The notes under the pieces: model-generated
Seen by the model: only the letters and a program-made list of their open reading frames with translations
Databases searched by the model: none
What the model was told of the DNA's origin: nothing
Position numbers and translations under genes: made by a program
Shown: positions 6,146-64,000 of the stretch, in pieces
Numbering within the stretch: position 1 is the stretch's first letter
Layout of the letters: every line of letters begins with the position of its first letter
Source of the DNA: Squalus acanthias
Lineage: Eukaryota
NCBI GenBank assembly: GCA_030390025.1
Contig: CM059431.1
Coordinates: 130,450,001 to 130,514,000, forward strand
Length of the DNA stretch: 64,000 bases
Reading direction: 5' to 3'

Positions 6146-6185
6146 AATGCAAGATGGAGGAGATAATTGCCGATGAAGATGGAAA

Positions 6186-6617: not shown

Positions 6618-6709
6618 ATGATTTTTGCCGGTTAAGCGAGAATTCCGGTTATTTGGGTGCCGGATAAACGAAAGTTTCCTGTAATCAATGGGACTGAAAT
6701 AAAGAACAT

Positions 6710-13964: not shown

Positions 13965-15706
13965 GCTGGGGCTGAGATGATTGGCTTCCAACAACCACAA
14001 CCATCTTTGTGTTATGTATGACTCCAGCCAGTGGAAAGTTTTCCCACTGATTCCCATTGACTTCACTTTTACGAGGGCTCCTTGATACCACAGTCGGTCA
14101 ATTGCTGCCTTGATATCAAGGGCAGTCACTCTCGCCTCACCTCTGGAATTCAACTCTATTGTCCATGTTTGGACTAAGACTGTAATGAGGTCTGGAGCCG
14201 AGTGGGCCTCATGGAAACCAAACTGAGCATCGGTGAGCAGGTTATTGGTGAGTAAGTGCCGCTTGATAGCACTGTCGACGACACCTTCCATCACTTTGCT
14301 GATGATTGAGAGTAGGCTGATGAGGCGGTAATTGGCCAGATTGGATTTGTCCTGCATTTTGTGGACAGGACATAGCTGGGTAGTTTTCCACATTGTCGGG
14401 TAGATGCCAGTGTTGTAGCTGTACTGGAACTGCTTGGCTGGAGGCGCAGCTAGTTCTGAAGCACAAGTCTTCAGCACGATAGCCGGGATGTTGTCGGGGC
14501 TCGTAGAATTTGCTGTATCCAATGTGCTCTGCCGTTTCTTGATGTCATGTGGAGTGAATCGAATTGGCTGAAGATTGGCTTCTGCGATGATGGGCACCTC
14601 AGGAGGAGGCCGAGATGGATCATCCACTCGGCACTTCTGGCTGAAGATGGTTGCAAACGCTTCAGCCTTGTCTTTTGCACTCGCGTGCTGGGCTCCGCCA
14701 TCATTGAGGATGGGGATATTCATGGAGCCTCCTCCTCCCGTTAGTTGTTTAATTGTCCACCACCTTTCACGACTGGATGTGGCAGGACTGCAGAGCTTTG
14801 ATCTGATCTGTTGATTGTGGGATCGCTTAGCTCTGTCTATAACATGCTGCTTCTGCTATTTAGCATGCATGTAGTCATGTGTTGCAGCTTCCCCAGGTTG
14901 GCACCTCATTTATAGGTCTGCCTGGTGCTGCTCCTGGCATGCTCTTCTGCACTCCTCATTGAACCAGGGTTGGTCACCTAGCTTGCTGGTTATGGTAGAG
15001 TGAGGGATATGCCGGGCCATGAGGTTACAGATTGTGGTGGAGTACAATTCTGCTGCTGCTGATGGCCCACAGCGCCTCGTGGATGCCCAGTTTTGAGCTG
15101 CTAGATCTGTTCTGAATCTATCCCATTTAGCACAGTGGTAGTGCCACACAACACGATGGAGGGTGTTCTCAGTGTGAAGACAGGTCTTTGTCTCCACAAG
15201 GACTGTGCGGTGGTCACTGCTACCAATGTTGTCATCGACAGATACATCTGCGACAGGCAGTTTGGTGAGGGCGAGGTCAAGTAGGTTTTTCCCTCGTGTT
15301 GATTCTCTCACCACCTGCTGCAGGCCCAGTCTGGCAGGTATGTTCTTTAGGGCTCGGCCAGCTCGGTCAGTAGTGGTGCTACCGAGCCACTCTTGGTGAT
15401 GGACATTGAAGTCCCCTACCCAGAGTACAATCTGTGCCCTTGCTACCTTCAGTGCTTCTTCCAAGTGGTGTTCAACATGGAGGAGTACTGATTCATCAGC
15501 TGAAAGAGGGCTGTAGGTGGTAATCAGTGGGAGGTTTCCTTGCCCATGCTTGACCGGAAGCCATGAGACTTCATGGAGTCCAGAGTCAATGTTGAGGACT
15601 CCCAGGTCCACTCCCTCCAGACTGTATACCACTGTGCCACCACCTCTGGTGGGTCTGTCCTGCCAGTGGACAGGACATACCCAGGGATGGTGATATTGGC
15701 TGACTG
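13965..15706 (-). mobile_element. LINE ORF2 5' half (APE endonuclease plus RT start), Crack/Daphne-like, frameshifted
   Basis: GGG..VY, VGDFNVHH, LLDL, SSDH (EN); NYR.ISLLS..SKVME, QFGF, ALDIK..D (RT). Confidence 0.9.
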
Positions 15707-15709
15707 ATG

Positions 15710-16412
15710 GCTTGTTTGCCAGGGCCGGCAATTATTTACACTTTTCATGTGAAGACACCAGTCAGAATGAACGGGCGCTCAGGTTTCCAGCTCTGGCTTG
15801 CTTCCCACAGGTGCAGAGCTGCACGCATGTGGCCATTAAGGCACCCCCAGATCAGCAAGAGCTATTCATCAAATGGAAGAGCTTCCACTCCATCAATGTA
15901 CAACTGGTGTGCAACCGCAAAAAGATATTTATGCGGGTGCGCAAGATTCCCGGGCAGCTGCCATGATGCTTTTGTCCTGCGGCAGTCCACCCTCCCTGAT
16001 CTCTTTTCACCTCAAAGCAGACTTACCGGCTGGCTGCTGGGAGACAAGGGATACCCACTTAAAATGTGACTGATGACACCCGTGAGGAACCCAACAAATG
16101 AAGCCGAGGAGTGATACAATGAAAGCCATGTGACAACCAGATGTGTCATTGAGCATGCTGAAGATGTGCTTCAGGTGCCTGGACAGATCTGGAGGCACCC
16201 TTCAGTACGCACTCCTCAAGAATGGTCGTGGTGTGCTGCGCTCTGTACAACATTGCACAGCAGCGAGGTTTAGACCTGGAAGAGGAACAAGGCTCAGAGC
16301 CTCTTCAGATGATTCCGAAGAGGAGGAGGAGGGGGAATGTGATGCGGCCAATGCACCAGAAGTGGCGCTCATTGATGCCCGGGCTACCCTCATTATTGCA
16401 AGGTTCACTTAG
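15710..16412 (+). pseudogene. Harbinger transposase relic (3' part)
   Basis: [32 protein letters not shown] and LK.CFRCLDRSGG motifs across frameshifts. Confidence 0.88.
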
Positions 16413-17119: not shown

Positions 17120-20100
17120 AGGCCCATCAAGTGTTCCCCCCACCCACCCCCGCCCCCCCAACTGTCCAGCCAGAGGAAGTCGCGGACTCTGAGGGTGCAC
17201 CGTCACACGACCCGTGCACACTCAGCATCAGCGCATATACACACACGTCGGTGTGTCCACTAAGTCAGAAAGTAGTGTTGTCACCTGGTGTCTCACAGAT
17301 CACGTGAGCAAGAGCAGATGGTGGAGACAGGGGCAGCAGTGAAGAGTCCTCAACGGAGGGCGCAGGACGCTCCAAGCGGTGCCCAGCTGGACGAAGATGC
17401 TGAACCTCGGGGGCTGTCGATGAAGCGGTGATTCTTGAGGAGCAACAGAAAGTGTGGGAGACTATGGCAGCTTTTCCAGCTGCGATGTGTTCAATTGTAG
17501 GGAGAATGGAGGTGTCAATCTCTAGCATGATGTTGCAAGCCTTGGCTATGATGTGTTTGTCCATGGAAAGGGTGGCCACCCGAATGGAGCATCAAATGCG
17601 CCAGTCAAATGAGTGCATGCTTGCTGTGAACACCAGCTTGCAGACTCTGAGTGCAGCCATATCTAGGATGGATAGAATCCTAGAGCTGGCCATTCATCCC
17701 CCCACTGATGTGTGGCAAAGTGCTCTCCAGCTCCTTATTAGCAGGGAAGTGCAGGTGGGCCATGAGAGGGATGATGGTGAGAGGGGACATGGAAGTGGAG
17801 ACTCTGCTAAAAGCGCTCCCACTTCTCCGTTGCTCCCCACCTCCTCCCCCCCCCCACCCCCCCTGTCAGAGCCCCACATGCTGCCGCGTATCCCGATGGC
17901 TGAGTCTGCTCCTGCACAGTTGCAGGTGGAGCAGTCTTTGGCGGGGCCTTCACAGGCTCCAAAAACCCAGAGGACGTCTGCCAAAAGTATCTAAACAGTC
18001 GGAGCAGGTATGTGAGCTGCCTGCCTCTATCTCTGCTGAAGCCACAGGGGTTGCAGTGTGTAGGAGTTGTAGGAAGAGAAAGATGAAACAATTTTGGATG
18101 CACATGGGTGTGTTATAAAAAGTTAGATGGTTAAGTTTCTGTTGAATTTTTGAGCCACATAAAATTATTTCTTTGCACCACTTTCCCATCTTGTCTGCTG
18201 CCTAGCAAATGGCCTTGTCACTTCAAGCGAATGGTACGACATTACTTAACCTCGAGCAATGGGTGTGTGTGACAGGAATGGTTTGGTCATTTTAGGACTG
18301 CTTCGTGGTGGTGGGGAAGTTGGTTCAGCATCTAGGTGCCATACGGGTGCACTGGTGCAACCTACCTAAATCGTGCCATTATGGGGTCATCCCGGGCAGC
18401 AATGTGCGCCGCTACTGTGCAGTGTCCACTTCAGGTTCCTCCTCCTCCTCGTGTTCCTCCTGCTCCTCCAAAGAGGCTCTGCGCCTTGCTCCTCTTGCAG
18501 CTCCAATCCTCACTGCGGCGCTGTGTTGTGCAGAGTGCAGTATACCACGATCATTCTGGAGACCCCGACTGCTGCGTATTGCAGGGCTCCTCCAGATCTG
18601 TCCAGGCATCTGAAGCGCACCTTCAGCATCCCGATTGCTTACGCTATTACACATCTCGTCGTTATTTGGCTTTGATTGTAGCGCTCTTCGGCCTCATTGC
18701 TTGGCCTCCTCAAGGGGGTCATCAGCTACATCTTCAGTGGATAGCCTTTGTCTCCAAGCAGCCAGCCAGTTGAACCATGACAGCTCCCTGGGAATCTGGC
18801 ACACACATGCATGATGATCTTTGTGGTTGCAGACAAGTTGCACATTGATGGAGTGGAAGCCCTTACGGTTCACAATCACTCTTGGGTGATCTGGGGGTGC
18901 CTTAATGGCCACATGTGTGTAGTCGATGATGCCCTGCACCTGTGGGAAGCCAGCCAGAGCTGCAAAACCGAGCGTACGCTCAGTCCAACTGACTTCATCA
19001 GTGGCAAAGTGGCAAACTCTTGTCAAACATAGCATCAGTCACCTGGGTGATGTATTTGTGGGTGGCCAACTGCAAGATCTTGCAAATGTCTCCTGTAGAT
19101 CCCTGGAAGGACCCTGAGGCGAAGAAGTTGAGGGCGGTGGTGACTTTGATCCACTGGTAACGCATGTCCACCAGGTCCATTTAGCAGCAGGTCTTCTTCC
19201 AGCAGGCTACAAATGTCTGCCACGACCTGACACGATAGACTGAGCCTCCTGAGGCACTGGTGTTCAGTCATGTCCAGGAAGCTGATCCTCTCCCTATACA
19301 CCGTGTTGGGGGTATCGCCTCCTGCGAGCTGCACCTCTCTGCTCATCCCCTCTCTCCTGTGGAGCGGCTGGTCAGTGAGGAGAAGGCTGCTGCTGCTCCT
19401 GCTGGTGTTGTTGCTGCTGGTGCTCATCTTGGTCCTCATCTGAGGTCCAAGGTGAAACAGCATAAGCAGCACCCATGCTGATCTATTACATGACAGGGGT
19501 AAAGTGGAGATCAGAGGCACAATCCTCCAATGCAGTGAGAGTGACTTCCAAAGTTGTAGAAATCACCTGCAAACTCCTGAAAGCAAACTCTCAGCACAAG
19601 TGGTGTCAGCAAGAGCCTTTCCCTTAGGCAAGGAAGCAGGTGCGAGTATTTCTGTGTTTTTTTTAAACTTGCCTTCACTGGCTAGGTTCAGCAAGCCGGG
19701 AATCCCATGGACAGCCAGTAAAACCTGCAACATCAGGTAAAAAAAGGCTGTTAATAGCCTCTTAACGATCTCTGAACTGCTTTAATCAGGTCACCCGCCT
19801 CTCAAAAAGGGGGTCTCTTGCGCGCTGACTAACACGTCCAAGTTAACGGGTTGAAGCCGGCAGGTTGAAGCCAGCTTCCTGAGGCCTGAGAAACCCGACC
19901 AGCCAGAGTTAAATTTGTAATGGTGGTTAAATCTGAGGCATGCCAGCCTCATTATAATATTTAAATGAGCGACCCACCTCCTGGGAGCGAATTGGCTGCC
20001 CGCCCCCTGTCCCGCCTCCGTTTAAAACCGGAAGTGGGCGGGTTGGGGTCGGGATTCAGTTTTTTAACACTTTAACCTCCTGCCCGACCCCAACCCTGTT

Positions 20101-20559: not shown

Positions 20560-20836
20560 GGGGGTAATTTTAACCTGAAAAAAACCGGGTGGGTTGGGGT
20601 CGGGGATCCCGGGCCTCGGCATTCCCGGTAGCTGCAGCGAGGCAAGGTCAGCCTCAGGGAGCAATCCTTGTGGGCCGGGAGGAGCAGGAATGGCCCCCCA
20701 AGCTCACCTACCACCAGTCCGCCCCATACAAACACCCCTGCCCCCCCCCTCCCACCCCACCGCCAGACCTCCGGGTTTCCCGTAGTCCACTAGGCCCCTC
20801 TGCTCCCAGTGGGTCAGAAACTTCAAAATTCCGTCC
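20560..20836. mobile_element. Short Harbinger-type MITE
   Basis: Starts gggggtaattttaacc (same TIR class as 20122 and 35648) and ends aaaattccgtcc. Confidence 0.6.
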
Positions 20837-22512: not shown

Positions 22513-24608
22513 GGGGGTGGAATTCAATAAGACCCGAAACTGGGAACGGGCACCACAATATGAGATATGCCCACATCCGTTTAGAAAGCGCAGGCGGTAC
22601 ATCAGTTTGGTGCTGTCTGCTACTTTACATGATAGGAGCGCACAGCCGAGCAACTATCGCAAGTTAGCTTCGCTGGAGCAAGATTGCCTTTCCTTAAAAC
22701 TAGGCTGTTCGTTTGCAAGGCAGTCTCTAGCCCTTAAAGTTGAAAATGAAAATCGTTCAGAACCAGGCAGTCTGCAGCTCTTAAGCTGAACTGCCTTCTG
22801 CACATAAAAATGCTTCAGCACTAACACAAATGGCTCAACGGGCCAGGGTAAGGGCACCCGCATTTTCAGACGCAGCACTCCAGCTTTGTGCAGGGGGTCA
22901 ACACTGGAAGAGAGGTCCTCTACTCACAGGGGGCCAGGAGGCCCTCAAGAAAGAATGATGTGGGACCAGATTGCCGAGGTGGTCACTGCCAGGAGTGTCG
23001 CCCCAGGACCTGGCTCCAGTGCCCAAAGAAGTTTCATGACCTCAGGCGAGTGGCCAAGGTCAGAGAATGCATCATCAAAAGCCGTCTCCTACCAGCTGCA
23101 CCACTAGCCTCACACACTGCTCAATGCATGTCCACTCCCATCACTCACCTACCAACAATCTCTACCAAACACAAGGCACACCTCACATTCCTAGCTTCAC
23201 CTCACCCCCTTGGAGGTGACGGTACTGGCCATTTTTGGCAGGGGCATGGCTGAGCCCTTGGCCAGTGGTGGGGCTGAAAGAATACAAGATGCTGGTATCC
23301 TCATACGTTATCCTCCTTCAACACATCCCCCTACCCCCTCATCCCACAATATCTTCTGATATACAAGCTGCACATAGTGTAAGCATGCACCTCTTGCTTT
23401 TCCGCCCTCCCCTCACCACAACCCTACCCTTGTGCCTTCCTCATTTCAGACATCCAGGAAATCTAGCCTCCCCAGCTAGTGGTTGACCAAGAAGAGGGCT
23501 AGGAGAGTGAAGAAGAAGAAAAAGAAACACCGTCACTCGGTTTCACACTCCCAGTTATCAGCTCCTTGAGGTTGTCCTGCAAGGCCATCTGCAATGTCCC
23601 CCATTGAAAATCAGCAGCCTTCCACCAGCCATGCTACAGCCACTGATGTAGCACTGTGTAACATCACTAGGACAGGCAAAGGCAGATGCAAGACAGTCAT
23701 TAAGGAAATCCACAAGGGTGATTAGTTGATTTTTTTGATGTAACATTGGATGCATATATGGATAAAGTTGGATTGGAAAGTTTGCTTCGTGGTGGCTTTT
23801 ATTTCAGCATTGTGGCCAAGAGGACGCTGTGATGGTCAGTTACAGAGGGAATGTAAGATGTGGGAAAAATATTGAAAGGGAATTGGGGTTGTGTTCACTG
23901 GTACTGCAGGCGGATGATTCAATCCCGGACATCCCGGCCAGAAAGGGGCTGTCTGGTTTGCCTCCTTCCTTCTGCTTCTTCCTCTTTTGCTTCCTCCTCT
24001 TCTGCTTCTTCTTCTTCCCTCTGTGAACAGCTTGTCCCCTTTGCTGCCTCTGCTTCATCTTCAAGTAATGTTGCAGCCCAAGGGGGACTGCAACTAGAGC
24101 CCCCAGGACTGTGAGCAAGTAGTGTTCTCAGAGGCCTTCCTTTAACATCCAAAGCTTTGCAGGCATCCTACAGCACTCCTTGTACACTAACTACTTCTAA
24201 AATGTATTGCACCAAGCCACTACTCCAATAAAATGTGAAAAAAAAGTCCAAAAGCTAAAATCTAAACTTATCTGAAAGATGTGTATGTCCCTTTAAGAAG
24301 CGCTGGCAGCATCTCTGTAGTACTGCTGCACGCACGTTCTTCTGTGCGTGGTTTGGAGAGGGCAGTATCCAGAGTGGCAACATCAAAAATCACAGTCGTG
24401 CTTCAATGCAGGCGTTGCACGCCAAGTGACGTCACAATTTGCATATTTACATGTGGGCAGTGAGCGCAGCCAACAGCAGCGCTACCGACCTTCCACAAAA
24501 TGCCATACGCCACGTTCTGCACCAGAAGCAGGTGGAAGGAAGGCGGCCGCCATTTTTTCAGTAAAACTGGCCTTAACGGCTGGCGCTAGACCTCCGAATT
24601 TTGCGTTC
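22513..24608. mobile_element. Decayed, internally deleted Harbinger element
   Basis: Myb exon-1 relic on plus (~22830-23060: MAQRARVRAPAFSD...RTWLQCPKKFHDLRRVAK|GT); transposase remnants on minus (~23890-24150); termini gggggtggaattc / gaattttgcgttc. Confidence 0.7.
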
Positions 24609-25711: not shown

Positions 25712-26947
25712 AAAAGAAGAAAAAGAAAGATATGCATTTATATAGCGCCTTTCACAACCACCGGACGTCCCAAAGCGCTTTACAGCCAATGAAGTAGTAT
25801 TTGAAGTACAGTCACTGTTGTAATGTAGGAAAGCGGCAGCCAATTTGCGCATACCAAGCTCCCACAAACTGCATTGCGATAATAACCAGATAATGGGCCA
25901 GAAATTCGGGTCTCCACGGGTGAGTACGCGCTGTGTACTCACCTGTAGACCCAATGAAAGTGCCGGTTTCGCGCATGCGCTGGAAACCGGAACTTCCGTT
26001 CCCTTGAAGGAAGGGGTTCGGAGGTCACACGCGTGCACCGGAGAGACAGCGCGCACGCATCGGACTTCCGTTTTTTTTTTCAGGTTTCTGTGTAAGGGTA
26101 AGTCCCCAGCAGCTGCGCGAGGAAAAAGCAGGCGCAAGGCCTGCTTTTAACAAGGTAAGTGGTGAATTAACTAAAATTTAAAAAATTTTTCCACAGGCTT
26201 ATTATTTTTAAATACTTTAAAGAAAGGTAAGTTTATTTTTAGCCCCATTAAAAACTGTAATTAATTTTTTCAAAAATTTAAATTATTGTTTAAAGTAGTT
26301 ATTTTGTGTAATTTATAGTTATTTTAAAAATGTGATTTAAAAAAAAATTATTTGAAGTTGTAGAGAGGTTTTGTGGCCGATCTCTATTCATAGATTTGAC
26401 TGGTCTTCCTGTCAAATCTATGAATGGAGATTCCCTGCTCCAATTGGCTCTCCATGGCCCACGTGATCCCAGGGGATGCTTCGAACTAACTGCGCCCCTG
26501 GGATACGCAAGCACTGTGCACCGGCAGCTGGAGAAGGCCCAGGATCGGAATTCCACGCGGGCCCAGAGCACAACGGCAGGCGCGCTAGGTAAGTGCAGGT
26601 TGGGGTGGGGGGCTTGCACCCGCGGGAAGCCTCCGACGCGAATTTCTGGCCCAATCTGGTTTTGTTATGTTGATTGAGGGATAAATATTGGCCAGGACAC
26701 CGGGGATTACTCCCTGCTCTTCTTCGAAATAGTGCCGTGGGATCTTTTACGTCCACCTGAGAGAGCAGATGGGGCCTCGGTTTAACGTCTCATCCGAAAG
26801 ATGGCACCTCCGACAGAGCAGCACTCCCTCAGTATGCACTGGAGTATCAGCCTAGATTTCTCTGTTCAAGTCTCTGGAGTGGGACTTGAATCCACAGCCT
26901 TCTGACTCAGAGGCGAGGGTGCTACCCACTGAGCCACAGCTGACACA
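25712..26947 (-). mobile_element. tRNA-derived Deu-domain SINE (SacSINE1-like), split by a MITE
   Basis: A/B-box head TGGCTCAGTGG...GGATTCAAGTCCC; central GGATGAGACGTTAAACCGAGGCCCC...GTAAAAGATCCC; L2-like tail GGCGCTATATAAATGCA(TCTT)n. Confidence 0.85.
25895..26652 (-). mobile_element. Harbinger-type MITE family A, copy 2 (inverted, more diverged)
   Basis: TIR GGGCCAGAAATTCG; exact AAT TSD (25892-94, 26653-55). Confidence 0.92.
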
Positions 26948-31235: not shown

Positions 31236-31482
31236 TGGGAAGGAGCCCTCGGATCCCAGCAGCGCTGCAGTGGTCATTGTGCAGCGCTGCACCTCTACCG
31301 CCCTCCCTGCTTAGTTTAGCGCTCCAGAAGGGAAGTGGTAGCGCTTGATTTGGCGCTCCAATTCCTTCCTGGCGCGCTAACACTGAATTTACCGAAAGCT
31401 GAGAATGATTAGCGCCTGCTGCTAATTTTTCCAGCTTTCAAAATTTACCACCCCAAACGGGGCGATACCGAATTTCTCCCCC
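31236..31482. mobile_element. Terminal fragment of a Harbinger element related to 45184-49374
   Basis: End ccccaaacggggcgataccgaatttctcccc resembles 49343-49374 (ccccaaatggggcgcgacctaatttctacccc); TTAGCGCC motifs. Confidence 0.65.
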
Positions 31483-41220: not shown

Positions 41221-41985
41221 GGGCCAGAAATTCGGCTTTCTGGCTTCCTGCGGGTGCAAGCATCGCGCGCGTACTTGCCTATCGCGCCTGCAGTTGTGCT
41301 TTGGGCCCACGAGGACTTCGGGTCCTGGGCCTCCTGCAGCTGCCGGCGCGCAGTGCTTGTGTATCCCAGGGGCGCAGTTAGTTCAAAGCGTCCCCTGGGA
41401 TCACGTGGGCCATGGAGAGCCAATCCTAGCAGGGCATTTTCATTCATAGATTTGACAGGACGACTTGTCAAATCTATGAATAGAGATCGGCCCCAAAACC
41501 ACACTTAAACTTCAAATAGATTTTTAAAATAACATCACATTTTTAAAATAACTATAAGTTACATAAATTAACTACTTTAAACAAAAATTAAAATTTTTGA
41601 AAAAATTAATTATACTTTTTAACGGTGCTAAAAATAAACTTACCTTTCTTTAAAGTATCTAAAAAAGATAAACCTGTTGAAATTTTTTTTAAATTGTAAT
41701 TAATTAACCACTTACCTTGTTAAAAACAGGCCTTGCGCCTCCTTTTTAAAAGTGCAGCTTCTTCATACTTACTTTCCCGGTGAAACCTGAAAAAAAACCT
41801 GAAGTTCGCTGCGTGCGCGCAGCCTCTCCCGCGCACGCGTTCAACTTCTGAACCCCTCCCTTCAGGGGAACGGAAGTTCCGGTTTCCCGCGCATGCGCAG
41901 TGCATGCAGGAAACCGGCACTTCAGATGGCCTTACGGGTGAGTACACGGCGCGTACTCACCCGACAACAGTCGAATTTCTGGCCC
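41221..41985 (+). mobile_element. Harbinger-type MITE family A, copy 3 (765 bp)
   Basis: TIR GGGCCAGAAATTCG; flanks AAT/ATT; near-identical to 12256-13019. Confidence 0.92.
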
Positions 41986-43676: not shown

Positions 43677-45695
43677 TTTATAGACAAGGAAGAAGAGGGG
43701 GACCAAGGATAGATCTTTTGGGTGACCCCCGGAGGTAAAAGTGTGGGAACAGAAGCCATTGCTGGAGGTACTCTGGCTATGAACGGGCAGGTAAAAACCA
43801 AGTTAGGGTAGTCCTACTGAGCTGGACAAGGAAGGAGAGGTGTTGGATATTGTGGTTGACTCTGTCAAAGGTTGCAGATACTCCACCACTGATACCACAA
43901 CATCAGGTTATAGATGCATTGCCAAAAGCAAAGCCATCCTGTTCAGCTCTTGCCTGAAATTTTGCACTTTAGCCCCTGATTCCATTCTCTTTCATAGCTG
44001 CTCACTCATGGTGCATGATCTTGACCCAGCTTGCACCTCTGATCTATTGTGTGTCCCCCTCTCTCCTTCTGCTCCGCAATTAGTGGCAGAGTCTTCAGTC
44101 ATTCTCACAAGCACTCTTGAATTCTCTTCTTAAACCTCTTGGCATTGCTACACCTCTCCAAATTCAAATGCAGCTGTAAGACTCCCTAATTCTATTCCTT
44201 GTTCATTCTTGTTGTGTGGCATAAGGAGATCCGAGAAAGTGAAAAGGAGTACTTCAAAAAGAGGAAGATTCCAAGTCAGTGGTGGAGCCCTTAGCATTCT
44301 CAGGATAGGGAAAGCCATGGTTCCTGTTCCGGATCACTATCCAGCAACCTGTGTTGAAAAAGTGTGTGCATGTGGACCCAGAGAACAGCGTTTGCTCAAT
44401 TGTAATGGCTCCAGTGTCAAGCAGTCTGCTGACCCTCATTCTCCAGGCTCACGTATAAAAATCGGCTTCTTGGACAAATGTTCACTGTTCCTGAAGAATG
44501 GTACTTCTGCATGAATCTTGGGAAGCGGAAGTGCTGGGGAGAAATATTAGAGGAGGAAATAAAAGGGAGAATCTCATTCATTGTAAACAAAAAAAAAGTC
44601 ATTTCATAGAATTATAGAATAGTCCAGCACAGAAGGTGACCATTTGGCTCATCGAGTCCGTATCAGCTCTTGTAAAGAGCAATCCAGTTAGTCCCACTCG
44701 TCCACTTTTTCCCCATATCCCTGCAATTTTTCTCCAAGTATTTATCCAATTCCCTTTTGAAGGTTACGATAGAATCTGCCTCCACCACCCTATCAGGCAC
44801 TGCATTCCAAATCCTAACCACTCGTTGCATAAAAAAGTTTTTCCTCATGTTGCCTCTGGTTCTTTTGCCAATCACCTGAAATCTGTGCCATCTGGTTATT
44901 GACCCTTCAACCATTGGAAACAGTTTCACTATCTAAACCCTTCATGATTTTAAAAACCTCTATCAAATCTCCTCTTAGCCTTCTATGCACTAAGGAGAAC
45001 AACCCCAGCTTCTCCAGTCTATCCACATAACTGTGACCCCTTATCCCTCGAACCATTCTAGTTAATCTCTTCTGTACCCTCTCCAAAGCCTTCATGTCCT
45101 TCCTAAAGTGCGGTGCCCAGAATTGGACACAATACTCCAGCTGGGGGCGAACTAGTAATTTATGTAGGGTTTTTGTACTCTATGGGGTAAAAATTCACTT
45201 GGTTGCGCCTCCCGTTAGCGCCTTAAGAGGGCGCTAATGGGGCGTTAAGCCGCTAACGCCCGGGCGCAGCGCTGTTTGCGCCGCTCGAGAACTTAACTTG
45301 AGATTGTGCGGCGGCGCTAAAACTTACCGCTGCGACCACCTGCGCGCGCAGATTGTGACGTCATTCCATGGTGCAACGCCCTTGGGGCGCCCCGGAGCGG
45401 AAATTGAGTGGCGCCCCCTGCCTTACCGCCTGGCGCTTCCAACGACCGGAAGACTGGAACGGTATCAATCGGTGTGGGGCTGGGGGGGGCGCTATTTAAA
45501 GGGGGCCTCTTCCTGTCTTTTTCTGTGGTCGACATTTATGCACCACTCGTTCTGAGAGAGAGAGAGAGATTCGGAGAGAGAGAGAGAGAGACTTCTACAT
45601 TGACTCAACGCTTTGTGAGGTAGTTTTGCCTAGTTCATCCTAACTTTGTTGCTACTTTAGTTGCTGTACCTCATTACTTTTCTGGCAAAGAGAAT

Positions 45696-46847
45696 ATGGG
45701 GGCTGCAATGATTGGGGGCGTCGTCCTGCTCCAGCTGAATCGGAGGATACTGAGACGCAGACAGAGAGTGGCAATGATGGCCAGACGGAGGAGGGCCATC
45801 AGGCGCATGTACAGGAGAGCTTACCCTCCCAGGGTATATCGTGAACAGCTCTCCTACATCCATATGTCCGAGGAGCTGTGTTTGCGAAGGCTGCGATTCA
45901 GCAAGGAGGTGGTCACTGAGCTCTGCCACCTGCTGCAGCCAGATCTGCAGCCTCAGCTGAGGTCCAGGACGTCTCTGTCGGTGGCAGTGAAGGTCACAGT
46001 GGCTTTGAACTTCTACGCCACTGGCTCATTCCAAGCTGCTGTTGGGGACCTCGCCAATATCTCCCAGTTTGCGGTGCATCGCTGCATCCGGCAGGTCACC
46101 AATGCCCTCTTCAGAAGGAGACGAGACTTCATCTCTTTCCCTATGACCCCAGACAAGCAGCGTGACCGTGCTCTGGGCTTTGCGAGGGTAGCGGGCTTCC
46201 CCATGGTGCAGGGCGCCATTGACTGCACGCATGTGGCTTTGCGTGCTCCGCGAGAGAATGCAGAGGAATTCAGGAACAGAAAGGGGTTCCATTCCTTGAA
46301 TGTGCAGTTGGTCTGTGACCACAGACAGGTGATACTCGCTGTCAATGCCCACTATCCGGGCAGCTGCCACGATGCTTTCATCCTGCGCCAGACTACTGTG
46401 GCAGAAGTTTTCGAGGCACCGCATCAGCCAGTTGGTTGGCTTCTGGGGGACAAGGGGTACGCATTGAGCACCTGGCTGATGACACCGCTCCGTACGCCAA
46501 ACACCCCTGCTGAGCTGCGGTACAATGAAAGCCATCAAGCAACCAGGAACATTATTGAGCGCACAATCGGCGTGCTGAAACAACGGTTCCGCTGTCTGGA
46601 CCATTCCGGAGGAGCCCTGCAGTACTCGCCTGAGCAAGTTTCGAACTTCGTAGTCGTGTGCTGCATGTTGCACAACATGGCAATCCTCAGGACCCAGCCA
46701 ATGCCACCAGGCCTTGTAGCACCACCAGAGGAGGAGGAGGAAGAGGACGAGGACGATGATCATCAGCAGCACCAAGGCAGGAGGGCGGCCCACAATGGTC
46801 AAACTGCAAGGGCCGTCCGTCAACGACTAATAGCAAGCCGCTTCTAG
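45696..46847 (+). CDS. Harbinger DDE transposase (HARBI1-like, DDE_Tnp_4), 383 aa, intact
   Basis: GAIDCTH, NRKGFHSLNVQ, GSCHDAF, LGDKGY and IERTIGVLKQRF motifs, uninterrupted. TATA-like gctatttaaagg at ~45491. Confidence 0.95.
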   Translation: MGAAMIGGVVLLQLNRRILRRRQRVAMMARRRRAIRRMYRRAYPPRVYREQLSYIHMSEELCLRRLRFSKEVVTELCHLLQPDLQPQLRSRTSLSVAVKVTVALNFYATGSFQAAVGDLANISQFAVHRCIRQVTNALFRRRRDFISFPMTPDKQRDRALGFARVAGFPMVQGAIDCTHVALRAPRENAEEFRNRKGFHSLNVQLVCDHRQVILAVNAHYPGSCHDAFILRQTTVAEVFEAPHQPVGWLLGDKGYALSTWLMTPLRTPNTPAELRYNESHQATRNIIERTIGVLKQRFRCLDHSGGALQYSPEQVSNFVVVCCMLHNMAILRTQPMPPGLVAPPEEEEEEDEDDDHQQHQGRRAAHNGQTARAVRQRLIASRF

Positions 46848-47141
46848 GGCCCCTGCCATTGCTACAAACACTAATCAACCCAGCACGCAACCCCTAAGCC
46901 GGCCAAGGCACCAATAATTCCAACCACCAGCCATGTATATTTTGAATACAGAAACTTATTTATTTTACAAACTCTGTGTGTGTCAATTCCTCATGACAAA
47001 CTCATAGAAATAAACACAAAAAAACAGTCAATAACATAACTGGTTCTCACAACCTGGAGATAATGTCCAAAACACTAAACAAAAGTTGGACCATGAACCT
47101 CGGCCTTTAATAAAAAAATGACTAGCATTTTGGCACACCTC

Positions 47142-49017
47142 CTACTTTTTGCCCTTCGAGGGTGATCTCCTTCCCTTGCGCACTTCCCCCCTTCTAACCC
47201 TACTGCTCCTCCGTAATGGGACCTCAGTGGCTGCAGCAAGGCTGGTGGAAGGCTGCTGCTCGTCAGACCCTGACACTGCAGATGCCCCTGAAGGACGGCC
47301 TCGACCACTTCTGGGCCTGGAGGGCCCGGCTGCAGACTGCACCAACTCTGCATGGGCGGCAGCAGTCTGTCCTACAGGCGGTGGCAAGTGCAGTGGAGAA
47401 GTGACAGTGTTGGCAGCAGGAATGCTGTCATCGTGAGAGAGGCCAGCAACTCCCTGCTCGCCCGACACACTGGCACTCCCACGGGGCAGCACTTCAGCAT
47501 CCGGAGCAATTTGCCGGAGAACAGATTGCTGGCCTGCTGCGGCGCGGTGACAGCCCCGGGGACATGTGCACGAACCATCGAGGTTGGCAGCAGTCTGTGC
47601 TCGCGTGGCCTCCATCTGAGTCTGTATGAGAGCAGTCAGAGGTGGGATCACGGCAGCCAGTGACTGAATTGCAGCACTAAGCGTTAGTGTGGCATCCGCC
47701 TGTGCTACAGCGAAGTGCTCCACACTCCTTGCCAGTGACTCAATGCAATCGGGCACCCTTCCCACTGCACCCATGAGCTCAGTGTGCATGCCCACCGCCT
47801 GGGTGTTCATTTCTGCAATCAGCCGCTCCTCCTCTGCGTCCATTGCAGTAGGAGTGTCTGGCATACTCTCCCTCTGGGGAGAAGGCCCCCGTTCTTCCCT
47901 ACCCCCCCATGGCGTTGCTGCAGCCCGCTGGGTCCTGGAGGTTCACCATCATCAGCCCCTTCCCCCCTGCTCCCCTCCGGGGAAGGCGTGTTCCCAGTGT
48001 GGGCATGGGCTTCCTCGGGAGAGGGTGGCACTGATGCTCCGGCTTCCTCTTCCTCCTCAGCTGCAGCATCACTCCCAGTGGCAGCTTCAGGGCCCGTCTC
48101 CTCAGCTGGTGAATCACCATCTGAAAGCAGGGAGGTACAAGAGTGGCTTTAGCGTGAGGACAGGGTGGCAGTAAGGGAGGAATAAGTGCAGCGAGTTAGC
48201 AAGTTGGATTGAAAGTGTCAAAGGCTGGTATTGTGAGGGACAAGTGGAAGGACAGAGGACAAAAAGGTGATGACCTTACCATTGCTGTCCACAACGGGGT
48301 CGGCGTCTCCAGTGGCGACGGGACCGATCACCCGGCTTGCCACAATCCTGTGGACGCGCTCCTCCAGATCGCTGAGGGGTTGCAGCTGAAGCCGCCCTCC
48401 ACCCGTCCGTTGCTGCTGTCTCCGATTATGAGCCAGCTTAGCCTGCAAGAAAAAGGACAGCATCTGAGTAAATATACAGCCATGGTCTTGCCTGATGTGC
48501 CTCCCATAGATGAATAGCCCTTACAATATACAGCCATGGTCTTGCCTGATGTGCCTCCCATAGGTGAATAGCCCTTACAATATACAGCCATGGTCTTGCC
48601 TGATGTGCCTCCCATAGGTGAATAGCCCTTACTGTATGCAAAGTGTGGAATGTGTGTGTGTGTTTGATGAAAGGGCCATAGGTGTTGGATGAGTGTTGTG
48701 CATTGGGGTTTTAAGACCCTCTGGCCATAGAGTGAGGTTGAGATGGAGGGATGGAGAGGTATTGAGAAAAAGCCACTCACCCTGACGACCCGAGTGAGGT
48801 CGTTGAACTTTTTGCGGCATTGAACATGGGTCCTGGGCACCATGCTCCTGGAGGAGACGCTCTGAGCCACCTCCCTCCACACTCTTCTGAACTCGCGTGG
48901 CAAAGGCCTCCTGCCACTCTCCGGGAACAGCATGCATCGTCTGCGCTCCACTGCGTCAACCAGAGCATCCAAGGCCCGCTCGGTGAAGCGATGAGCGCGT
49001 TCTCTCACCCTCTCCAT
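47142..49017 (-). CDS. Harbinger Myb/SANT-like DNA-binding protein, 3 exons (49017-48781, 48442-48280, 48120-47142), one frameshift in exon 3
   Basis: Exon 1 encodes RFTERALDALV...WREVA...RT..QCRKKFNDL. GT-AG sites have compatible phases (0, 1). The frame shifts near the G7 run at 47902-47908 into MPDTP...KGKK*. Confidence 0.85.
48471..48632. repeat. 3 x 54-bp tandem repeat in Myb intron 1
   Basis: aatatacagccatggtcttgcctgatgtgcctcccatag(a/g)tgaatagcccttac at 48471, 48525 and 48579. Confidence 0.95.
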
Positions 49018-50635
49018 GCTTGGCAGCAAAATGGATTACAGGTCTCTCCAGGCTGAGATTCAAGGCTGCAATGAGCAGGGTGTGGCTGGGGAGCAAGTGG
49101 CCCCCCCCGCTTTAAGAAGTGTCCGGCGCCAGTGTGTCTGTGTTCCCTCGCTAACTGGCAGCAGCTGCGCTGCGCTCGTGCGCTGAGTTAGCGCCTCACT
49201 CCTTGGCCTTTGCGCCTTAAGAGAGGTGTGCAGCGCCTGCTTTAGCGCTCCACTCACCTCCCGGGGCGGTAAAAGTGAAGTTTCCTGTCAGTGCTGATAA
49301 TTAGCGCCAGGCGCTAATATTTGCGTCCGGACGATATTTGCGCCCCAAATGGGGCGCGACCTAATTTCTACCCCTATGGCTCTATTTATAAAGCCTAGGA
49401 TCCCACATGCTTTATTATCTGCTTTGTTCACCTGTCCTGCCAACTTCAAAGATTTGTGCACAAACACCCCCAGGTCTCTCTCTTCTTGCACCCCCTTTAA
49501 CATTGTACCATTTAGCATGTATTGTCTCTCCTCATTCTTCGTACCAAAAGGTATCACCTCACACTTTTCTGTGTCGAATTCCATCTGCCATGTGTCCGCC
49601 CATTCCAGCAGCCTGCCCATGTCCTCCTGGAGTTTATTACTATCTTCCTCAGTGTTTACTACACTTCCAAGAAATTGTGCCCTGTACCCCAAGTCCAAGT
49701 CATTAATGTATTTCAAAAACAGCAGTGGTCCAAGTACTGAACCTTGGGGAGCTCCACTGTATACCTCCCTCCAGTCCAAAAAACAGCCATTCACCCCAAC
49801 CCTCTGTTTTACACAAAAGCCTGTTTAAATTTCTAGCTTCATGCATCATGAGGAGTGGTCATGAATTTTGGAAAAATAATTTCCAAAAATTATTTGGAGA
49901 AGAATGTCCCATGTTACTACTGCTTACCATTGAGGCTGTGTTTTTTTTAAAAATCTTTGCAGTGAGTCAGCACAATAAATTTAAACTAATACGTGGCAAT
50001 TGTTGGAATAGTTTTCTGAGTTGTAAGTCTGTGGTAATGGAAAGAATAAAGGGAATAGTAGGAAAGGAATCCTAGACCTTGAAGAGTAATAAATTACATC
50101 ATTGAGAAGCTGTTTGAATGTTGAATAACATCAATTTATTCAACAGTCCATTTGTACATCTCCCCACCACATGCATTTAATTTAAAATATTCTGCGCATA
50201 AATGTCAGGTCCCAAATATGAAAAAGTAACGTTCACCACAACAGTCAGAGGAGCTGATCGCGATAAGCACACTCAGCGAGAGTACAATAAAATTCTCACA
50301 ATCTGACAACATCCTCGTTAAATTGTACTGGAAGTTTCAGCAGTTCATTCTGATGAATTAATCACACCGCTGCCTCTCTCTCTTCTCGCGTTCCTGCTCC
50401 GCCCTCCCTCTCGTTTTCGTCCCCAGTCTCTTTGTCTAGCGCTCCTCCCTCTATCCCTCCACATTGTCTCTGCGCTCTTCCGCTCCGCACCCCCCCGGCC
50501 CCCCCGCCCTGGCCCGCAATCGTGGTGAGTCAGACCCCACCCACTTGCTGCTCCGGATGACCCTGGCCCCCACACGATTCTTCCCTCCCTCCTTTGTGTG
50601 GCTCAATGCCGCAGGTCACCCGCCCGAAGCCAGAC

Positions 50636-55599: not shown

Positions 55600-56470
55600 A
55601 ATGTCCTTGTACAGAATTATAATGAAGGAGGATGAGGAGCGGTGCAGGATGGAGGAAGGAAGAATGAGGCAGCATTTGAGCAGTGTCATACATGATTTTA
55701 CACTCCCCCCACAGAATTTACAGGCCACGCAGATGCTGTGAAGACTTTAGTGAGGAGCACTGTATTAGAAGAGAACTCTTCACCAAAGATGCAAGAAGGG
55801 AGCTGTGCCAGCAACTACATGAAGATCTGCCCAGATAGCTCTGCTTGTGGCTGTGAAAGTGACTATCACGCTCAATGTTTATGCCACCGGCTCATTTCAA
55901 GCAGCCACTGGGGATCTGTGTAATATCACCCAGGGTGTTGGCGGGCTTGCATTTGCCAGGTAGTTGACACTTTTCAAGGGAGCTGGAGACTTCAGTAGCA
56001 TGATAGGGCCATCCAGTATAATCATGTTGCTGGGTACGTGGTGTGCAATGCATGGCACCTACATTGCATGTCATAATAGAAAGTGCTACCACTTACTAAG
56101 CATCCAGATTGTGCGTGAAAACATGCAAAAAATCCTCCATGGCGGTATCAGATTTGCTGGAAGTTGTCATAATGCCTTTGTCTTCGGTAATTCGGCAACC
56201 TGACCTTTTCAAGGAAGATAGTCAAATAAATGGATGGCTTGGGGTGACAAGATGTACCCCTCTCAGAATTCCATGAACAGCAGCTGAGGAGTACGACATC
56301 AAGGCACATGCCTCTACCAGAGTTACAATAGAGAAGTATTGCAGTCTTAATGGGGAGCCTTTGCAGCTTTGGCAGATATGGGGTCTTTGAAATATGTTTC
56401 AGGTGGTGTATCCTATATAGTTATGGTTTGCTGTACTTTACACAACTTTGCCATCCAGCAGAAGACCTAC
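55600..56470 (+). pseudogene. Heavily decayed Harbinger transposase
   Basis: ALLVAVKVTITLNVYATGSFQAA, GSCHNAFV and CCTLHNFAI remnants. Confidence 0.7.
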
Positions 56471-59005: not shown

Positions 59006-60707
59006 GGCCAGAATTTTCTATACCTTGGCGGGTACGATGCAGGCGGTGACCATGTCGGGTTCTGACCCCGCTGCTGCCTCTATCCGCTGTTGAAAATGAA
59101 CTTACCTTAATGGAGCCTATTAAGCCCGCCCAGCGCATTACCTGGCCCAATGAGTTGGAGCGGGTCTGGTGACGTCATTCATGACGCATTTTGAGCCAGG
59201 ATCTTTAAAGGGACCATGGCCACATTACATTTGCAGTTTTATCTAACATAGTGCTGTCAGTGCACTACAGCATTGGAGTGCTGCAAACACTGACAATGAC
59301 TGCACAGAGGCAGAGGGCTGCACCCATGTTCTCCGATGACTCCCTCCATATGCGATGGGCGGAAGAGACCTCGCCAGGAGACCAAGACAGCCTGGTTGCA
59401 GATTGCAGAGGAGGTCACAAGCAGGGATGTGGTCAGGAGGACCTGGGTGCAGTGGCACAAACCTTTCAATTATCTCATTAGATCAGGAAACATTAGTACA
59501 AAGCCACACTCAACTGCATCCTGCTGTGCCTCTCATCACATCCACATCACTCTGCCTTCCCTACCCTACTCCTGCACATCCTTCCTCACACCAACATACC
59601 TTGCACCTCCACCCATCCCTCTCTCTCTGTCTACATTATCACATCCCCATCTCACTAGCCATCCCTCACACATGCCCTGATCCCAGTGTAATCATACCAA
59701 CTAACAACACACAAGGGTAGCCACTTGGGTTTTTTATTCAATGTTGATGTAAAGTTTCTGTTAATTACATGTCAAACATAAAAATCATTATTTTCAACAT
59801 TGGACAGATTGGTGTATACCTTTGGAAGTGGCTTAGTGAGTTGCAGTGAATGGTGAAACATAACGGTACCCCCGCAATAGTGATGAGTGTGAAAGGAATG
59901 GCTTGGTCATTGTAGGGATGCTTTATGGTGTTAGTGTGGGGTGATGCCAACCTGGTGCATCATGTGGCAGCCATATGGGTGTACAGTGTAAAGTTTACTA
60001 AATCTGGCCATGATGAGGCCATCCCTCGCCTCCCGGGCAGCAATGTGCTCGGGTGCTGATGCCTTGTGTCCTGTGCAGCATCAGGTGATTGCGGAGAAAG
60101 TTGTTGTTGTTGTTGGTGCTGTTGATGCTGAGGCTCATCGTGGTCCGATTCTGAGGATCAAGGTGAGACAGTATGAACGGCGCCCATGCTGATGGAATAG
60201 ATGGCAGGGGAAGTACAGATGACAGAAGCATTCTGTCAATGGTGAGAGAGTTCTTCCAATGAGGTGACACTGGATGGAGACTTTGCTGGAAACACTTGCA
60301 GCCTGCAGAATCTGTGCTGGAAATGGACTGAGCAACAGCTTCTGCCTGAGGAAAGTGATCATTTGCCAGGTGGGAACTTTTACTGTACATTTCATGCTGT
60401 CAAGTAATCAGCTGGAGCAATGACCACTGAACTCCCGCCTCAGGTTGACAGACGTGGTTCCCGAGCTGCGTGAATCCTGTGGCCATGCAGGGAAATTTAA
60501 AAAGTAAGTGGAAACTACCTGATAATCATTTCAATTGGGTCCCCCGCCGCTGCTGGTCGGGTTGGCTTCGCGATGACAGACGCGCCTGGGGGGAAAGAGC
60601 ATGGGAGCGAGGTGACAGCTGGTTCCTGATTCGCTGTCAAAAATGACACACTTTTCCACCTGACCTGCCACCGATCGCACCTGCTACCACCCCAGAAAAT
60701 TCTGGCC
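59006..60707. mobile_element. Internally deleted Harbinger derivative
   Basis: Perfect 14-bp TIR GGCCAGAATTTTCT with AAA on both flanks; Myb exon-1 relic on plus (~59296-59490); transposase 5' relic on minus (~59990-60190). Confidence 0.82.
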
Positions 60708-62878
60708 AAACTGTCTGTTGGTTTGGAGCCTGAATATAGGGTGTATGTTCAATCCATCTTTTCAAGAGAGGAGAATCAGATGATGGCATATCATACATTC
60801 CAGTAAATTGGCATGCAGTGCAAAGGTTGTCCATTTGATTCCTGGGTCTTATTATCATTTGCCTAGATAGTGGGCAGGGAAAGACTCAGTTGGAATTTAG
60901 GGGATGTGAAGACTACTTATTGGACTGGTTGATGACACTGAACCTAAGAAACTATCTGGTGTAAAAGCCCAAAAGCATGATGTATCTATATTATGACCTG
61001 ATCAGATGTTTTTCACATGAGGGCACTTTAGAACAAGAAGCTTCATTCTTATTTTTATTTGGAATCTAATAGTTTCTTGGTAGCTGTTTCTGCTTCTTTC
61101 CTTTGAATGGAGGATCAGTTGGTGGAAGAGGAGCAGTAGCAACAGCAACTGCCTCAGCAACCAGGAAAGCAGCAAGTGGGCCTATTATAAGAGTGCGGGT
61201 GAGGGGAGATGCATGTAGACGACCTTATTCAGCTGATAGGGTCCATAGGCCAAGAGTTAATATCTTGGTTATCTTTGAGGAGCAGTGCACGAGGAGGCTG
61301 TGCTTCACCAGGCAGGCTGTTGCTGAACTATGTAGCCTATTGCAGCAGGACCAGAGGGGCATGCTTTGCCAGTGGCTTTCAAAGTCACCACCACCCTTAA
61401 CTTTGTCACCACAGACTCCTTCCAGGCTGCTATGAGTGACATCACCTGCATCTCCCAGTCTGCAGCAAGCAGGTCACCAATGCCCTCCTTGCCAGAGCAA
61501 ACCAGTATATTACATTTGCAGTGAACAGGAACAGCCAGACTGAGAAAGCTCTGAGATTTGCAGCAGTGGCTGGCTTCCCTCGTGTCCAGGGCATAATAGA
61601 TTGCACTCATGTAGCTATAAGGGGACCAGAAGATGAACCAGCAGCTTATGTGAACAGGAAGGGCTTCCACTCCATCAATGTACAACTGGTGTGTGATCAC
61701 TGCAGAAGGATAATGCAAGTCTATGCTAGTTTCGCTGGCAACTACCACAATTCTTTCATTCTGTGATACTCATCCACCCCCCCCCCCCCCCACTTTTTCA
61801 CCCATCCAAGACCATCAAAGGAGGGCTGCTAGGGGACAAGGGATACTGATCTGCAAGAGAACAGACGACAGAAGATTAGTGACACCATCAAAGCTCCTAT
61901 CAATTTGTTCCCGCAATCTTACCAAGGTGGATGGCTGTCTTTCCAAGGTGGAGCACAAGTTTGAGCCCAGAGCCTGCATGACAGCCATTTGAGCTTCCAC
62001 CAAATCTGCAAAGGCTGGTGACATTGACTTCTGTTGTGAGAGCCTGGCTTCAGTGACACTGGAGATGGCTACGCTCTCCAAGGTAGACTGCAGAATGTTG
62101 ATCCCCTGGTAGATGACACCACACGGGCTGGAAGCGGACTCCTTCACACTTTCAACCTTTGTGGTGAAAGTCCTTGGTAGGCCTTCCAATACCTGATATA
62201 ACTGCTTGCGCGAAGCAAGCAGTTTTGTTCACATCTCTGTCCTTCTCCACAGAACTGGAAGAGGACCTCGCCCTCTGGCAAGCTCTCTCATGGACTGTCT
62301 CTGCTACCAATACCTGCTGTTGCTCACTACTGCTGAGTGCATTACCACATACAGATCTCTCTAATTCTCTAACTCATCTGGGGTTGCCAATCCCTGTACT
62401 GGTGCCTCCTCACAAGGATTCTTCTTCTCTGAGTTGCCTTCTTCTGCCAGCTGCAGAAGTTGAGAAGGACCTAGAGGAAAGAGAAAAGGAACAAAAGTTA
62501 GCATGGCAATGAGAGATTAGATAGTGGCAGATGACAAGCATCACAATGCAACAATGTAGTCAAGTTGCTTGATAATGCATTTTTCAGAGGTTTATGGCAG
62601 GGTGCAAGTAATCAGAGATCCTGTTCAGAGAAGTCTCTGGCTTCAAAATCTCCTATCCTGACAGTCAGGAGGGGCCACTAATTTCCAGCATTTGCTGCTC
62701 CAGTTCAAAGAGGTTCATGCTGTTTCTGGTGCTCCCCTAGTCTTAATCTTCTCCCTTGTGTTGTGCGCTGTCTTGTCCTACAGAGGTCATGATGTAGAGA
62801 TGCCGGCGTTGGACTGGGGTGGACAAAAATGAGAAGTCGCACAACACCAGGTTATAGTCCAACAGATTTATTTAAAAT

Positions 62879-62914
62879 TACAAGCTTTCGGAGCTGTCGC
62901 TCCTTCTTCAGGTA
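62879..62914 (-). ncRNA. Minimal hammerhead ribozyme motif
   Basis: UAC-CUGAAGA-A-GGAGC(gaca)GCUCC-GAAA-GC-UU-GUA. Confidence 0.8.
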
Positions 62915-63291
62915 GGGTAGCTGTGAGAGAATCTCCCAGAATTCACAATATAAACACAGAAAAAATGTATTCCAATCTTTCCCTACATCAAAGACACACT
63001 AAGAGCACAGCCAAGACAATGAGATGTGTCCCAGGGGGTCCAACGTGTCAAAACACCTGCTGGCCGCATATCCTCTCCATTTGGGTTTGGTTCTTGTGTT
63101 AGTTTTTTTTTTAAAAGCTGGAAAGACCGGCCATGATGTCAAGTCACGTTCTGTATCGTGACATGAACCCGATATCGCGATTGAGGCCATCCTCATGAGT
63201 GCGGAACTTGGCTATCAGTTTCTGCTCTATGATTTTGCGTTGTCGTGTATCCCGAAGGCCGCCTTTCTGGGAGATTCTCTCACAGCTACCC

Positions 63292-63327
63292 TACCTGAAG
63301 AAGGAGCGACAGCTCCGAAAGCTTGTA
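63292..63327 (+). ncRNA. Minimal hammerhead ribozyme motif (mirror copy)
   Basis: tac ctgaaga a ggagc gaca gctcc gaaa gc tt gta, read directly on the plus strand. Confidence 0.8.
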
Positions 63328-64000
63328 ATTTTAAATAAATCTGTTGGACTATAACCTGGTGTTGTGCGACTTCTCATTTTTGTCCTACAGAGAGAGAGGG
63401 CAAGAGTTAGTGAGTGTCTTCTACAAAGGAGAGTACAAATGTGTGGGGGTTTTGCATGCTGTGTAGATGTTGAGAGGGAGAAGAAGCAAGCTGGAATCAG
63501 AATGGGGAGGTGTTGAATGAAAAGCATGAGTGTGAAATGTGAATTGAGGAAGGAGCCATGAAGGGAGCAAAGATGAGGTGAGTGTCTGTTTGTAATGAAA
63601 ATGGCAGATGGCATTGTGTGTCCTTGTGCTGGGTGATGAAGGATGTGATGAAGTGGAGGGAATTGTTGAGAGTGGTATAGTATGAGGGAAGGTCTGTTGC
63701 TGTGTCTTGTTGAAAGAACTAGAGAAATGAAGAGTTGTACTCACGCTTGCTACTCTTGTGAGGTCATTGAGCTGCTTCCTGCACTGCATCCAGGTCCTGA
63801 AGCTGACAATCTCAGCATTCATTTTCCATCCCTCCTCCCATTGACTGGGAAGAGAACATCCCTCCTCTCCCTGACCTCTTCCAGCAGGACTTCCAGGGAG
63901 GCTTCAAACAACCTGGGAACTTGCCTCTGACTCATTGAAGCAGTTTCTTCTGCCACCACTCCAAAGCGAAATCTTGCAGTGCACGAGGAGGCTGTGCTTC

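Follow-up and report, generated by a model that had tools for sequence, protein, structure and literature searches.

The 64,000-nucleotide stretch of the Squalus acanthias genome analyzed here (assembly GCA_030390025.1, contig CM059431.1, positions 130,450,001 to 130,514,000; referred to as the window) contains a Harbinger-type transposon of the PHIS superfamily. This element, 4,191 bp long, occupies positions 45184-49374 of the window and carries two convergent genes, one coding for a DDE transposase and the other for a Myb/SANT helper protein. We consider it probable that it is full-length and relatively young, belongs to a shark family of very high abundance, and was inserted in an older and decayed CR1 element, and that its helper gene is broken, leaving it probably non-autonomous.

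Element Boundaries and Insertion Site

The limits of the element were located by an end-register scan. Within the scanned end windows, 45184/49374 was the only register in which the starts match and the flanking triplets are identical; as a control, 300 random window pairs gave no such end pair, against one in the real ±50-nt windows. The terminal inverted repeats (TIRs) are 12 bp long and match at 11 of 12 positions (left, plus strand, 45184..45195, GGGGTAAAAATT; right, 49363-49374, as reverse complement, GGGGTAGAAATT). Their short length and imperfect match limit the weight that they add to the call. Contigs that derive from other insertions have their joint or their end precisely at 45184. 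A 12-bp TIR is inside the 5-1042 bp range given in PMC4482050 and below the usual 25-50 bp of PMC9179366. The element is flanked by a target-site duplication (TSD) of the triplet TAT (45181..45183 and 49375..49377). A preliminary description of this DNA, which had recognized both termini, gave the extent as 45181-49377; the element is there, but that span includes both copies of the TSD.

Both subterminal regions have abundant CpG. The left one (45184..45500), which is GC-rich, has an observed/expected (o/e) CpG ratio of 1.15 and repeated TTAGCGCC/GGCGCTAA motifs at 45215, 45230, and 45313, and the right one (49100..49374), which ends in the right TIR, has a ratio of 0.93 and the same motifs at 49188, 49301, and 49310. 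These motifs, close to both ends, are candidate binding sites for the Myb-like protein.

The host is a CR1 long interspersed nuclear element (LINE) in the minus strand, divided by the insertion into a downstream portion with the decayed end of ORF2 (44660..45180) and an upstream portion with a reverse transcriptase fragment (49378..49824; PF00078, E 3.5e-6, under the curated cut-off), both with approximate bounds. When the element and one TAT are removed, the minus-strand CR1 reading frame continues over the junction (...GILGFINRA|IEYK...). Of the four CR1 matches elsewhere in the window, three cover the empty site colinearly and show a single triplet there (TAT, AAT, and TAT), and the fourth stops short of the junction. 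The exact TSD that had been proposed after rejoining the host sequence is, therefore, well founded. The host CR1 is 66-77% alike to the spanning paralogues, carries a 17-nt deletion about 12-15 nt to the left of the TSD, and loses its frame just past the junction; it is old and decayed. The bases around the insertion, ACTC-TAT-GGCT, are compatible with the pattern A-N-N-Y...R-N-N-T, a fit that has a chance of about 1/64 at a single site.

The Transposase Gene

The transposase open reading frame (ORF) at 45696..46847 (plus strand) codes for 383 amino acids with no stop codon and matches DDE_Tnp_4 (PF13359, E 2.5e-39), in agreement with its earlier description as intact. A homology search returned 404 proteins at E ≤ 1e-20, the best 120 of which were compared. 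The acidic residues D176, D226, D252, and E288 are present in the window protein, and each one is the majority residue among the 120 listed homologues; we take the catalytic set to be among these four. D176, D252, and E288 are kept together in 54 of the 120. The closest relatives among the matches listed are shark and ray proteins, with 61-66% identity. A tree was built with 48 of 121 proteins, hand-chosen for species coverage and including neither a verified HARBI1 orthologue nor a Repbase reference. The window protein was located among Pristiophorus sequences (10 rows, support 92/89), within a supported shark and ray clade.

The predicted structure of the transposase was confident (pLDDT 85.9). 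In a Foldseek search with this model no hit reached E ≤ 0.001; the highest-ranking ones were DDE integrases and transposases, with E values of 5e-3 to 1e-2. The search of solved structures by sequence produced a single chance match (E 0.2). A complex prediction run without alignments, combining residues 25-345 of the transposase with the helical part of the C-terminal frame of the Myb-like protein, scored 0.00, which is neither for nor against binding. The convergent stop codons of the two genes are separated by a 294-nt spacer (46848..47141) with AATAAA in both strands (47009 and 47109 in the plus strand and 46959 in the minus strand), putative polyadenylation signals.

The proteins named 'HARBI1' also include five supported clades (P0040/41; P0025/26/68; P0012/13; P0008 with P0017/18/22/24/30/110; and P0005/6) in which sequences from separate shark or ray genera are united by short branches and most members have lost catalytic residues. 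With these features, they are candidate Harbinger transposases that were domesticated specifically in sharks and rays. They are not mentioned in the available sections of PMC9392472.

The Myb/SANT Helper Gene and Its Frameshift

Four public runs were compared with the element in detail: X1 (organism A, guessed to be DNA), X16 (organism A, guessed to be RNA), X19 (organism B, guessed to be RNA), and X11 (organism F, kind unknown). The Myb-like gene lies in the minus strand and was modeled with three exons. Exon 1 (48781..49017, 79 codons) includes the Myb/SANT domain (PF13873, E 1.3e-9) and is followed by intron 1 (48443..48780, 338 nt, GT-AG, phase 0), exon 2 (48280..48442, 163 nt), intron 2 (48121..48279, 159 nt, GT-AG, phase 1), and exon 3 (47142..48120), which is broken by a frameshift and in which homologues match both frames in order. 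For the junction of intron 1 the support is protein homology only: in the independent database proteins P0009, P0124, and P0128, the exon-2 peptide follows the Myb domain without interruption; P0124 and P0128 are colinear homologues of the gene. Contigs of both RNA-like runs, X16 and X19, lack precisely intron 2, and no such joint was seen in X1 or X11. Ten proteins related to the distal frame of exon 3 were found at E ≤ 0.001, and two of these carry a Myb domain at the N terminus; exon 1 used as query for longer proteins found one match among 158 candidates. The convergent gene with phase-compatible GT-AG introns described earlier is thus recovered, with the junction numbers 48781/48442 and 48280/48120 corresponding to exon edges. 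Of the two RNA junctions that had been proposed as a check, 48280/48120 was found in X16 and X19, while 48781/48442 was not among the joints listed.

Two further features of this gene were recorded. Intron 1 contains three tandem copies of a 54-nt unit (48471-48640). In addition, the C-terminal half of P0125, an unnamed 801-amino-acid RING/B-box/PML-coiled-coil protein, corresponds to exons 2-3 of the Myb-like gene of this family, a composition that would reflect either the capture of exons by a TRIM/PML-like gene or a chimera created by gene prediction. A 31-residue gap of exon 3 with respect to the homologues was considered as damage private to this copy, which is unlikely since an X19 contig (47328-47766) crosses the region gap-free.

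The frameshift is located at a run of seven G (47902..47909, minus strand), where the window has two bases more than the contigs of other copies. As written, the spliced frame stops at 47821 and specifies 233 amino acids, about 206 of them in the right frame; removal of two bases produces a protein of 458 amino acids, close to the 460 or so that had been expected after repair. A two-base gap at 47902 was observed in all four runs compared, at full depth in X16, X19, and X11 and in 14% of the summed depth in X1. For this reason the common form of the family is open at this point, and the break belongs to this copy, to a subgroup, or to the assembly. The individual contigs of these other copies are shorter than a whole gene. 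A frame switch at 47903-47906, with matches on either side of the break, was found in five of the 11 homologues tested. Three weak candidates for an extra intron that would bypass the break were rejected because the homologues are continuous across the region. Since the helper protein stops at 233 rather than 458 amino acids, this copy is probably non-autonomous. The earlier term 'near-intact' is correct for the ends, the TSD, and the transposase, but not for the helper protein, about half of which is removed by the break. Potentially active elements are described as having both ORFs intact (PMC4482050), and unless the assembly is in error the Myb frame of this copy is not.

Abundance of the Family

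Sampled 31-mers of the element were looked for in public runs, and 50-91% of them were present in 20 of the 24 listed runs, which come from 13 studies and nine organism codes. In X1, 48,277 contigs were matched to the element and its CR1 flanks, 7,651 of them at ≥99% identity, 15,781 at 95-99%, and 24,845 at 90-95%. The summed depth in this run reached 1e5-1e6 within the element, compared with about 30-70 for several single long contigs. The contigs include other left insertion flanks, one more of which ends in AAA, and internal deletion forms of the element (45205>49241 and 45521>49241). These results show that the Harbinger family is very abundant and heterogeneous. They also bear out its description as a two-component, multi-copy transposon nested in a CR1 rather than a domesticated gene, given the abundance, the several flanks, and the Myb frame that is open at the break in other copies. 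Two observations were not accepted as proof of a polymorphic or missing insertion. Joints that look like an empty site (45143>49380 and similar ones) carry CR1-paralogue sequence, and the share of 83-91% of the sampled words found in organism A does not prove an absent insertion because contigs drop rare variants.

Several points weigh against the interpretation given above. Concerning abundance, summed contig depth is not copy number. Concerning the gene model, the intron-2 joints have short sides (18 and 29 nt) and come from one contig each, in runs whose RNA nature is a guess; no intron-1 joint is among the 15 joints listed (62 others are unlisted), and in X16 and X19 the boundary between exon 1 and intron 1 is crossed by unspliced contigs. 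Concerning the break, the small share of X1 depth with the two-base gap may mean that the longer G run is common to a group of copies, or short contigs may fail to span it. An assembly slip in the G homopolymer is also possible, and three weaker alternative introns, none of them among the joints listed, could in principle skip the break. The requirement for the lost C-terminal half is, in turn, a presumption. Finally, the flank motif comes from a single site, and its full fit was found in one of the three miniature elements of the window described below.

Age of the Family and Alternative Explanations

This copy is within about 0-2% of consensus-like contigs. The long contigs inside the element differ from it at 19 of 2,189 bases in X11, 19 of 1,621 in X16, and 33 of 1,458 in X19. 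Five more diverged records were left out of these figures (X11, 15/244 and 13/235; X16, 14/172 and 16/162; X19, 7/141), and hand sums that include them amount to about 1.8% (X11), 2.5% (X16), and 2.5% (X19). Part of the difference is between subfamilies because two variants, with 0 and 15 differences, coexist at 45975-46218 and several contigs of 150-250 nt are identical to the window copy. The CpG o/e ratio is 0.59 in the transposase, compared with 0.08-0.42 in three decayed remnants of the window and 0.16-0.29 in the host CR1. This copy is, therefore, young relative to its neighbors. In absolute terms, the pedigree mutation rate of the epaulette shark (7e-10 per base per generation; PMC10587355) converts a difference of 0.9-2.3% into 13-33 million generations (6-164 over the stated interval), a rough upper bound, and even a 1% difference into more than 10 million. 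By this analogy, 'near-intact' need not mean 'recent' in a shark. Recent activity, which had been suggested in the preliminary description, is thus not established, all the more so because many X1 copies are 4-10% away.

We came close to giving an even chance to the proposition that the family died out long ago and owes its fresh appearance only to slow mutation in sharks, which is compatible with the anatomy of the element. The generation counts calculated for the nearer contigs of X11, X16, and X19 agree with it, the near-identity of sequences found under nine organism codes would suit a burst that preceded the separation of those species, and the eight X1 contigs listed differ by 4-11 bases in 97-126. 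On the other hand, part of the difference separates subfamilies and is not decay, CpG is well preserved at the element ends, spliced RNA-like contigs with an open frame exist, and the mutation rate was taken from another species. That the family is still moving in living sharks is doubtful but conceivable. Intact two-gene copies would then be transcribed and spliced, insertions would differ between individuals, and the target would be a palindromic flank, A-N-N-Y...R-N-N-T, around a free triplet. Distinctly less probable is that this very copy is intact and autonomous, with the two extra bases being a homopolymer error of the assembly. The break does fall in a run of seven G, the two bases are uniformly absent from the contigs of three runs, and no more than 83-91% of the sampled words occur in the five best organism-A runs, as would be expected if the window contained errors. 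However, missing words are expected anyway in contigs that drop rare variants, G runs slip in vivo too, and no other insertion or deletion with respect to the contigs is found inside either gene frame (two other gaps, one of 1 nt at 45633 and the other, minor, at 49037, are both outside).

The presence of the 31-mers under so many organism codes, together with the known transfer of a marine Harbinger (PMC8437027), could also point to a recent spread by horizontal transfer among several animals. This is very unlikely. X11, the only compared run outside organisms A and B, also contains the host-type CR1 with the same CR1 variants and loose ends, and its depth is 30-240 in the element and 15-470 in the CR1 flanks, both about ten thousand times below X1. 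The pattern fits trace shark-type DNA or the library of a related shark better than a lone transferred element. The transposase, moreover, groups with shark and ray proteins. The nine organism codes were not accepted as proof of transfer, as X11 brings the host-type CR1 along at like depth. We practically dismiss a domesticated transposase/Myb gene pair like HARBI1/NAIF1. It could be argued from the name of the homologues, 'putative nuclease HARBI1', and from the fact that both genes may be transcribed, but such names are automatic, and the element keeps both ends and the TSD, lies inside a LINE, belongs to a very abundant family with several insertion flanks, and has a broken Myb frame. Domesticated genes (HARBI1, NAIF1, and MSANTD) are described as single copy, without transposon ends and in a conserved place (PMC9392472), whereas ends, a TSD, very many copies, and several flanks were found here.

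Neighboring Elements in the Window

Four decayed Harbinger transposase remnants are located at 15700-16270 (+), 18519-19292 (-), 55746-56455 (+), and 61277-61846 (+), bringing the transposase copies in the 64 kb to five with the intact one. Myb-like remnants are found at 22879-23076, 59354-59485, and 61845-63956. Three MITEs (miniature inverted-repeat transposable elements) of about 760 bp (12256-13019, 25895-26652, and 41221-41985), 95% and 82% alike, have perfect GGGCCAGAAATT ends and flanking triplets GAT/AAT, AAT/AAT, and AAT/ATT; they were probably mobilized by Harbinger elements. A lone right end at 31328-31482, 70% alike to that of the Harbinger element and followed by TTG GTCT, had no matching left end by motif scan. 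Two similar Harbinger-like termini that face outward, a right end at about 20122 and a left end at about 20560 (20121 and 20560-20561), are the ends of two neighboring elements.

The window also contains a pogo/Tigger-type element (4093-6681; Pfam CENP-B_N, HTH_Tnp_Tc5, and DDE_1) with TA on both sides and 24-bp perfect terminal repeats. Its transposase, open over 585 amino acids in the minus strand (frame 4388-6205), has the three motif aspartates. As far as can be judged from its sequence, this element looks fully intact and structurally more complete than the Harbinger copy.

Proposed Mechanism and Significance

Rice Ping/Pong and zebrafish Harbinger3_DR require both proteins for transposition, as the preliminary description had stated; in these systems the Myb-like protein attaches both to the element ends and to the transposase, which it carries into the nucleus (PMC2836001, PMC9392472). 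By analogy, the Myb-like protein of the shark family would bind the element ends and recruit the transposase, which would excise the element and insert it at a 3-nt target that is duplicated in the process. The choice of target may depend on the flanking bases (here ACTC-TAT-GGCT) more than on the triplet. The copy in the window would have gained two bases in the G run after its insertion, unless the assembly added them, and would make at most a 233-amino-acid helper that keeps the Myb domain and lacks the C-terminal half. Although such a copy could not move alone, it might be mobilized in trans by sister copies and could lend them transposase.

The locus is a clean annotated example of two-gene Harbingers that are abundant in a shark. 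Harbingers were undetected in the elephant shark, and the other cartilaginous fish were left to be examined in 2022 (PMC9179366); the present analysis adds family-level detail to that point. Genome papers already list the superfamily in the whale shark (PMC8455134) and, among the commonest DNA transposons, in the grey reef shark (PMC12498223). With these reports, the four remnants in the window, and 269 intact copies in a sea krait (PMC8437027), the rarity attributed to such an element in the preliminary description was overstated. No two-gene Harbinger family of a shark was described in the literature searched, although Repbase, Dfam, or the family and repeat tables of PMC4482050, PMC8455134, and PMC12498223 may contain one. 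The proposal to reconstruct the element as a tool suits this copy poorly, given its broken helper gene and the existence of open copies; for zebrafish Harbinger3_DR, in addition, both a reconstruction and activity in human cells are already on record (as cited in PMC2836001 and PMC3016246). Should the family be active, it would offer tool screens a natural two-component vertebrate transposon from a cartilaginous fish, with no reconstruction needed and a sequence-biased target. It would also be useful for structural work, as no solved structure matches the transposase by sequence, nor at E ≤ 0.001 by fold. If still moving with a target set by the flanks, it would be outside the scheme that assigns such elements to subgroups according to their duplication.

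Comparison with Known Systems

Harbinger3_DR shares with the shark element the transposase and Myb-like genes, both needed in zebrafish, and a 3-nt duplication. Its palindromic target, as published, has inner flanks (ACAC..GTCT; PMC3016246) that agree with ACTC..GGCT at three of four bases on each side. Its duplication is CWG while that of the shark element is TAT, and this comparison was made by description, not by sequence. Harbinger-Snek of sea kraits (PMC8437027) is likewise a very abundant two-gene marine vertebrate Harbinger with deletion derivatives and transcribed copies, but it was acquired horizontally, and its intact copies were counted in one sea krait species, while the nearest relatives of the present element are those of other sharks. 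The shark and ray 'putative nuclease HARBI1' proteins, many of them from Pristiophorus japonicus, share the domain with the window protein and include its best matches. They differ in that fewer than half of the 120 listed keep the D, D, and E residues, and the literature found treats none of them as a transposon family.

The NuwaI and PIF/Harbinger groups (Han et al. 2015, PMC4482050) also have two ORFs (DDE and Myb/SANT), a length of 4.1-4.5 kb, and short TIRs. Both ends of the shark element begin with GGGG, in accordance with the GGG start given for NuwaI TIRs; the NuwaI hosts named in the relevant passage of that paper include no cartilaginous fish. Its duplication, TAT (ATA in the other strand), differs in either strand from 5'-TWA-3' (strict PIF/Harbinger), 5'-CWG-3' (NuwaI), and ANT (Pangu), as these are given in the same paper. 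In the wide sense, the element is a Harbinger, with a DDE transposase (PF13359), a separate Myb/SANT gene (frameshifted here), TIRs, and a 3-bp TSD. Because the TSD rules of strict PIF/Harbinger and NuwaI both fail, TAT falls outside the published subgroup rules and the element is filed under neither of the two groups, although, judging from its gene content and ends, it would work like them.

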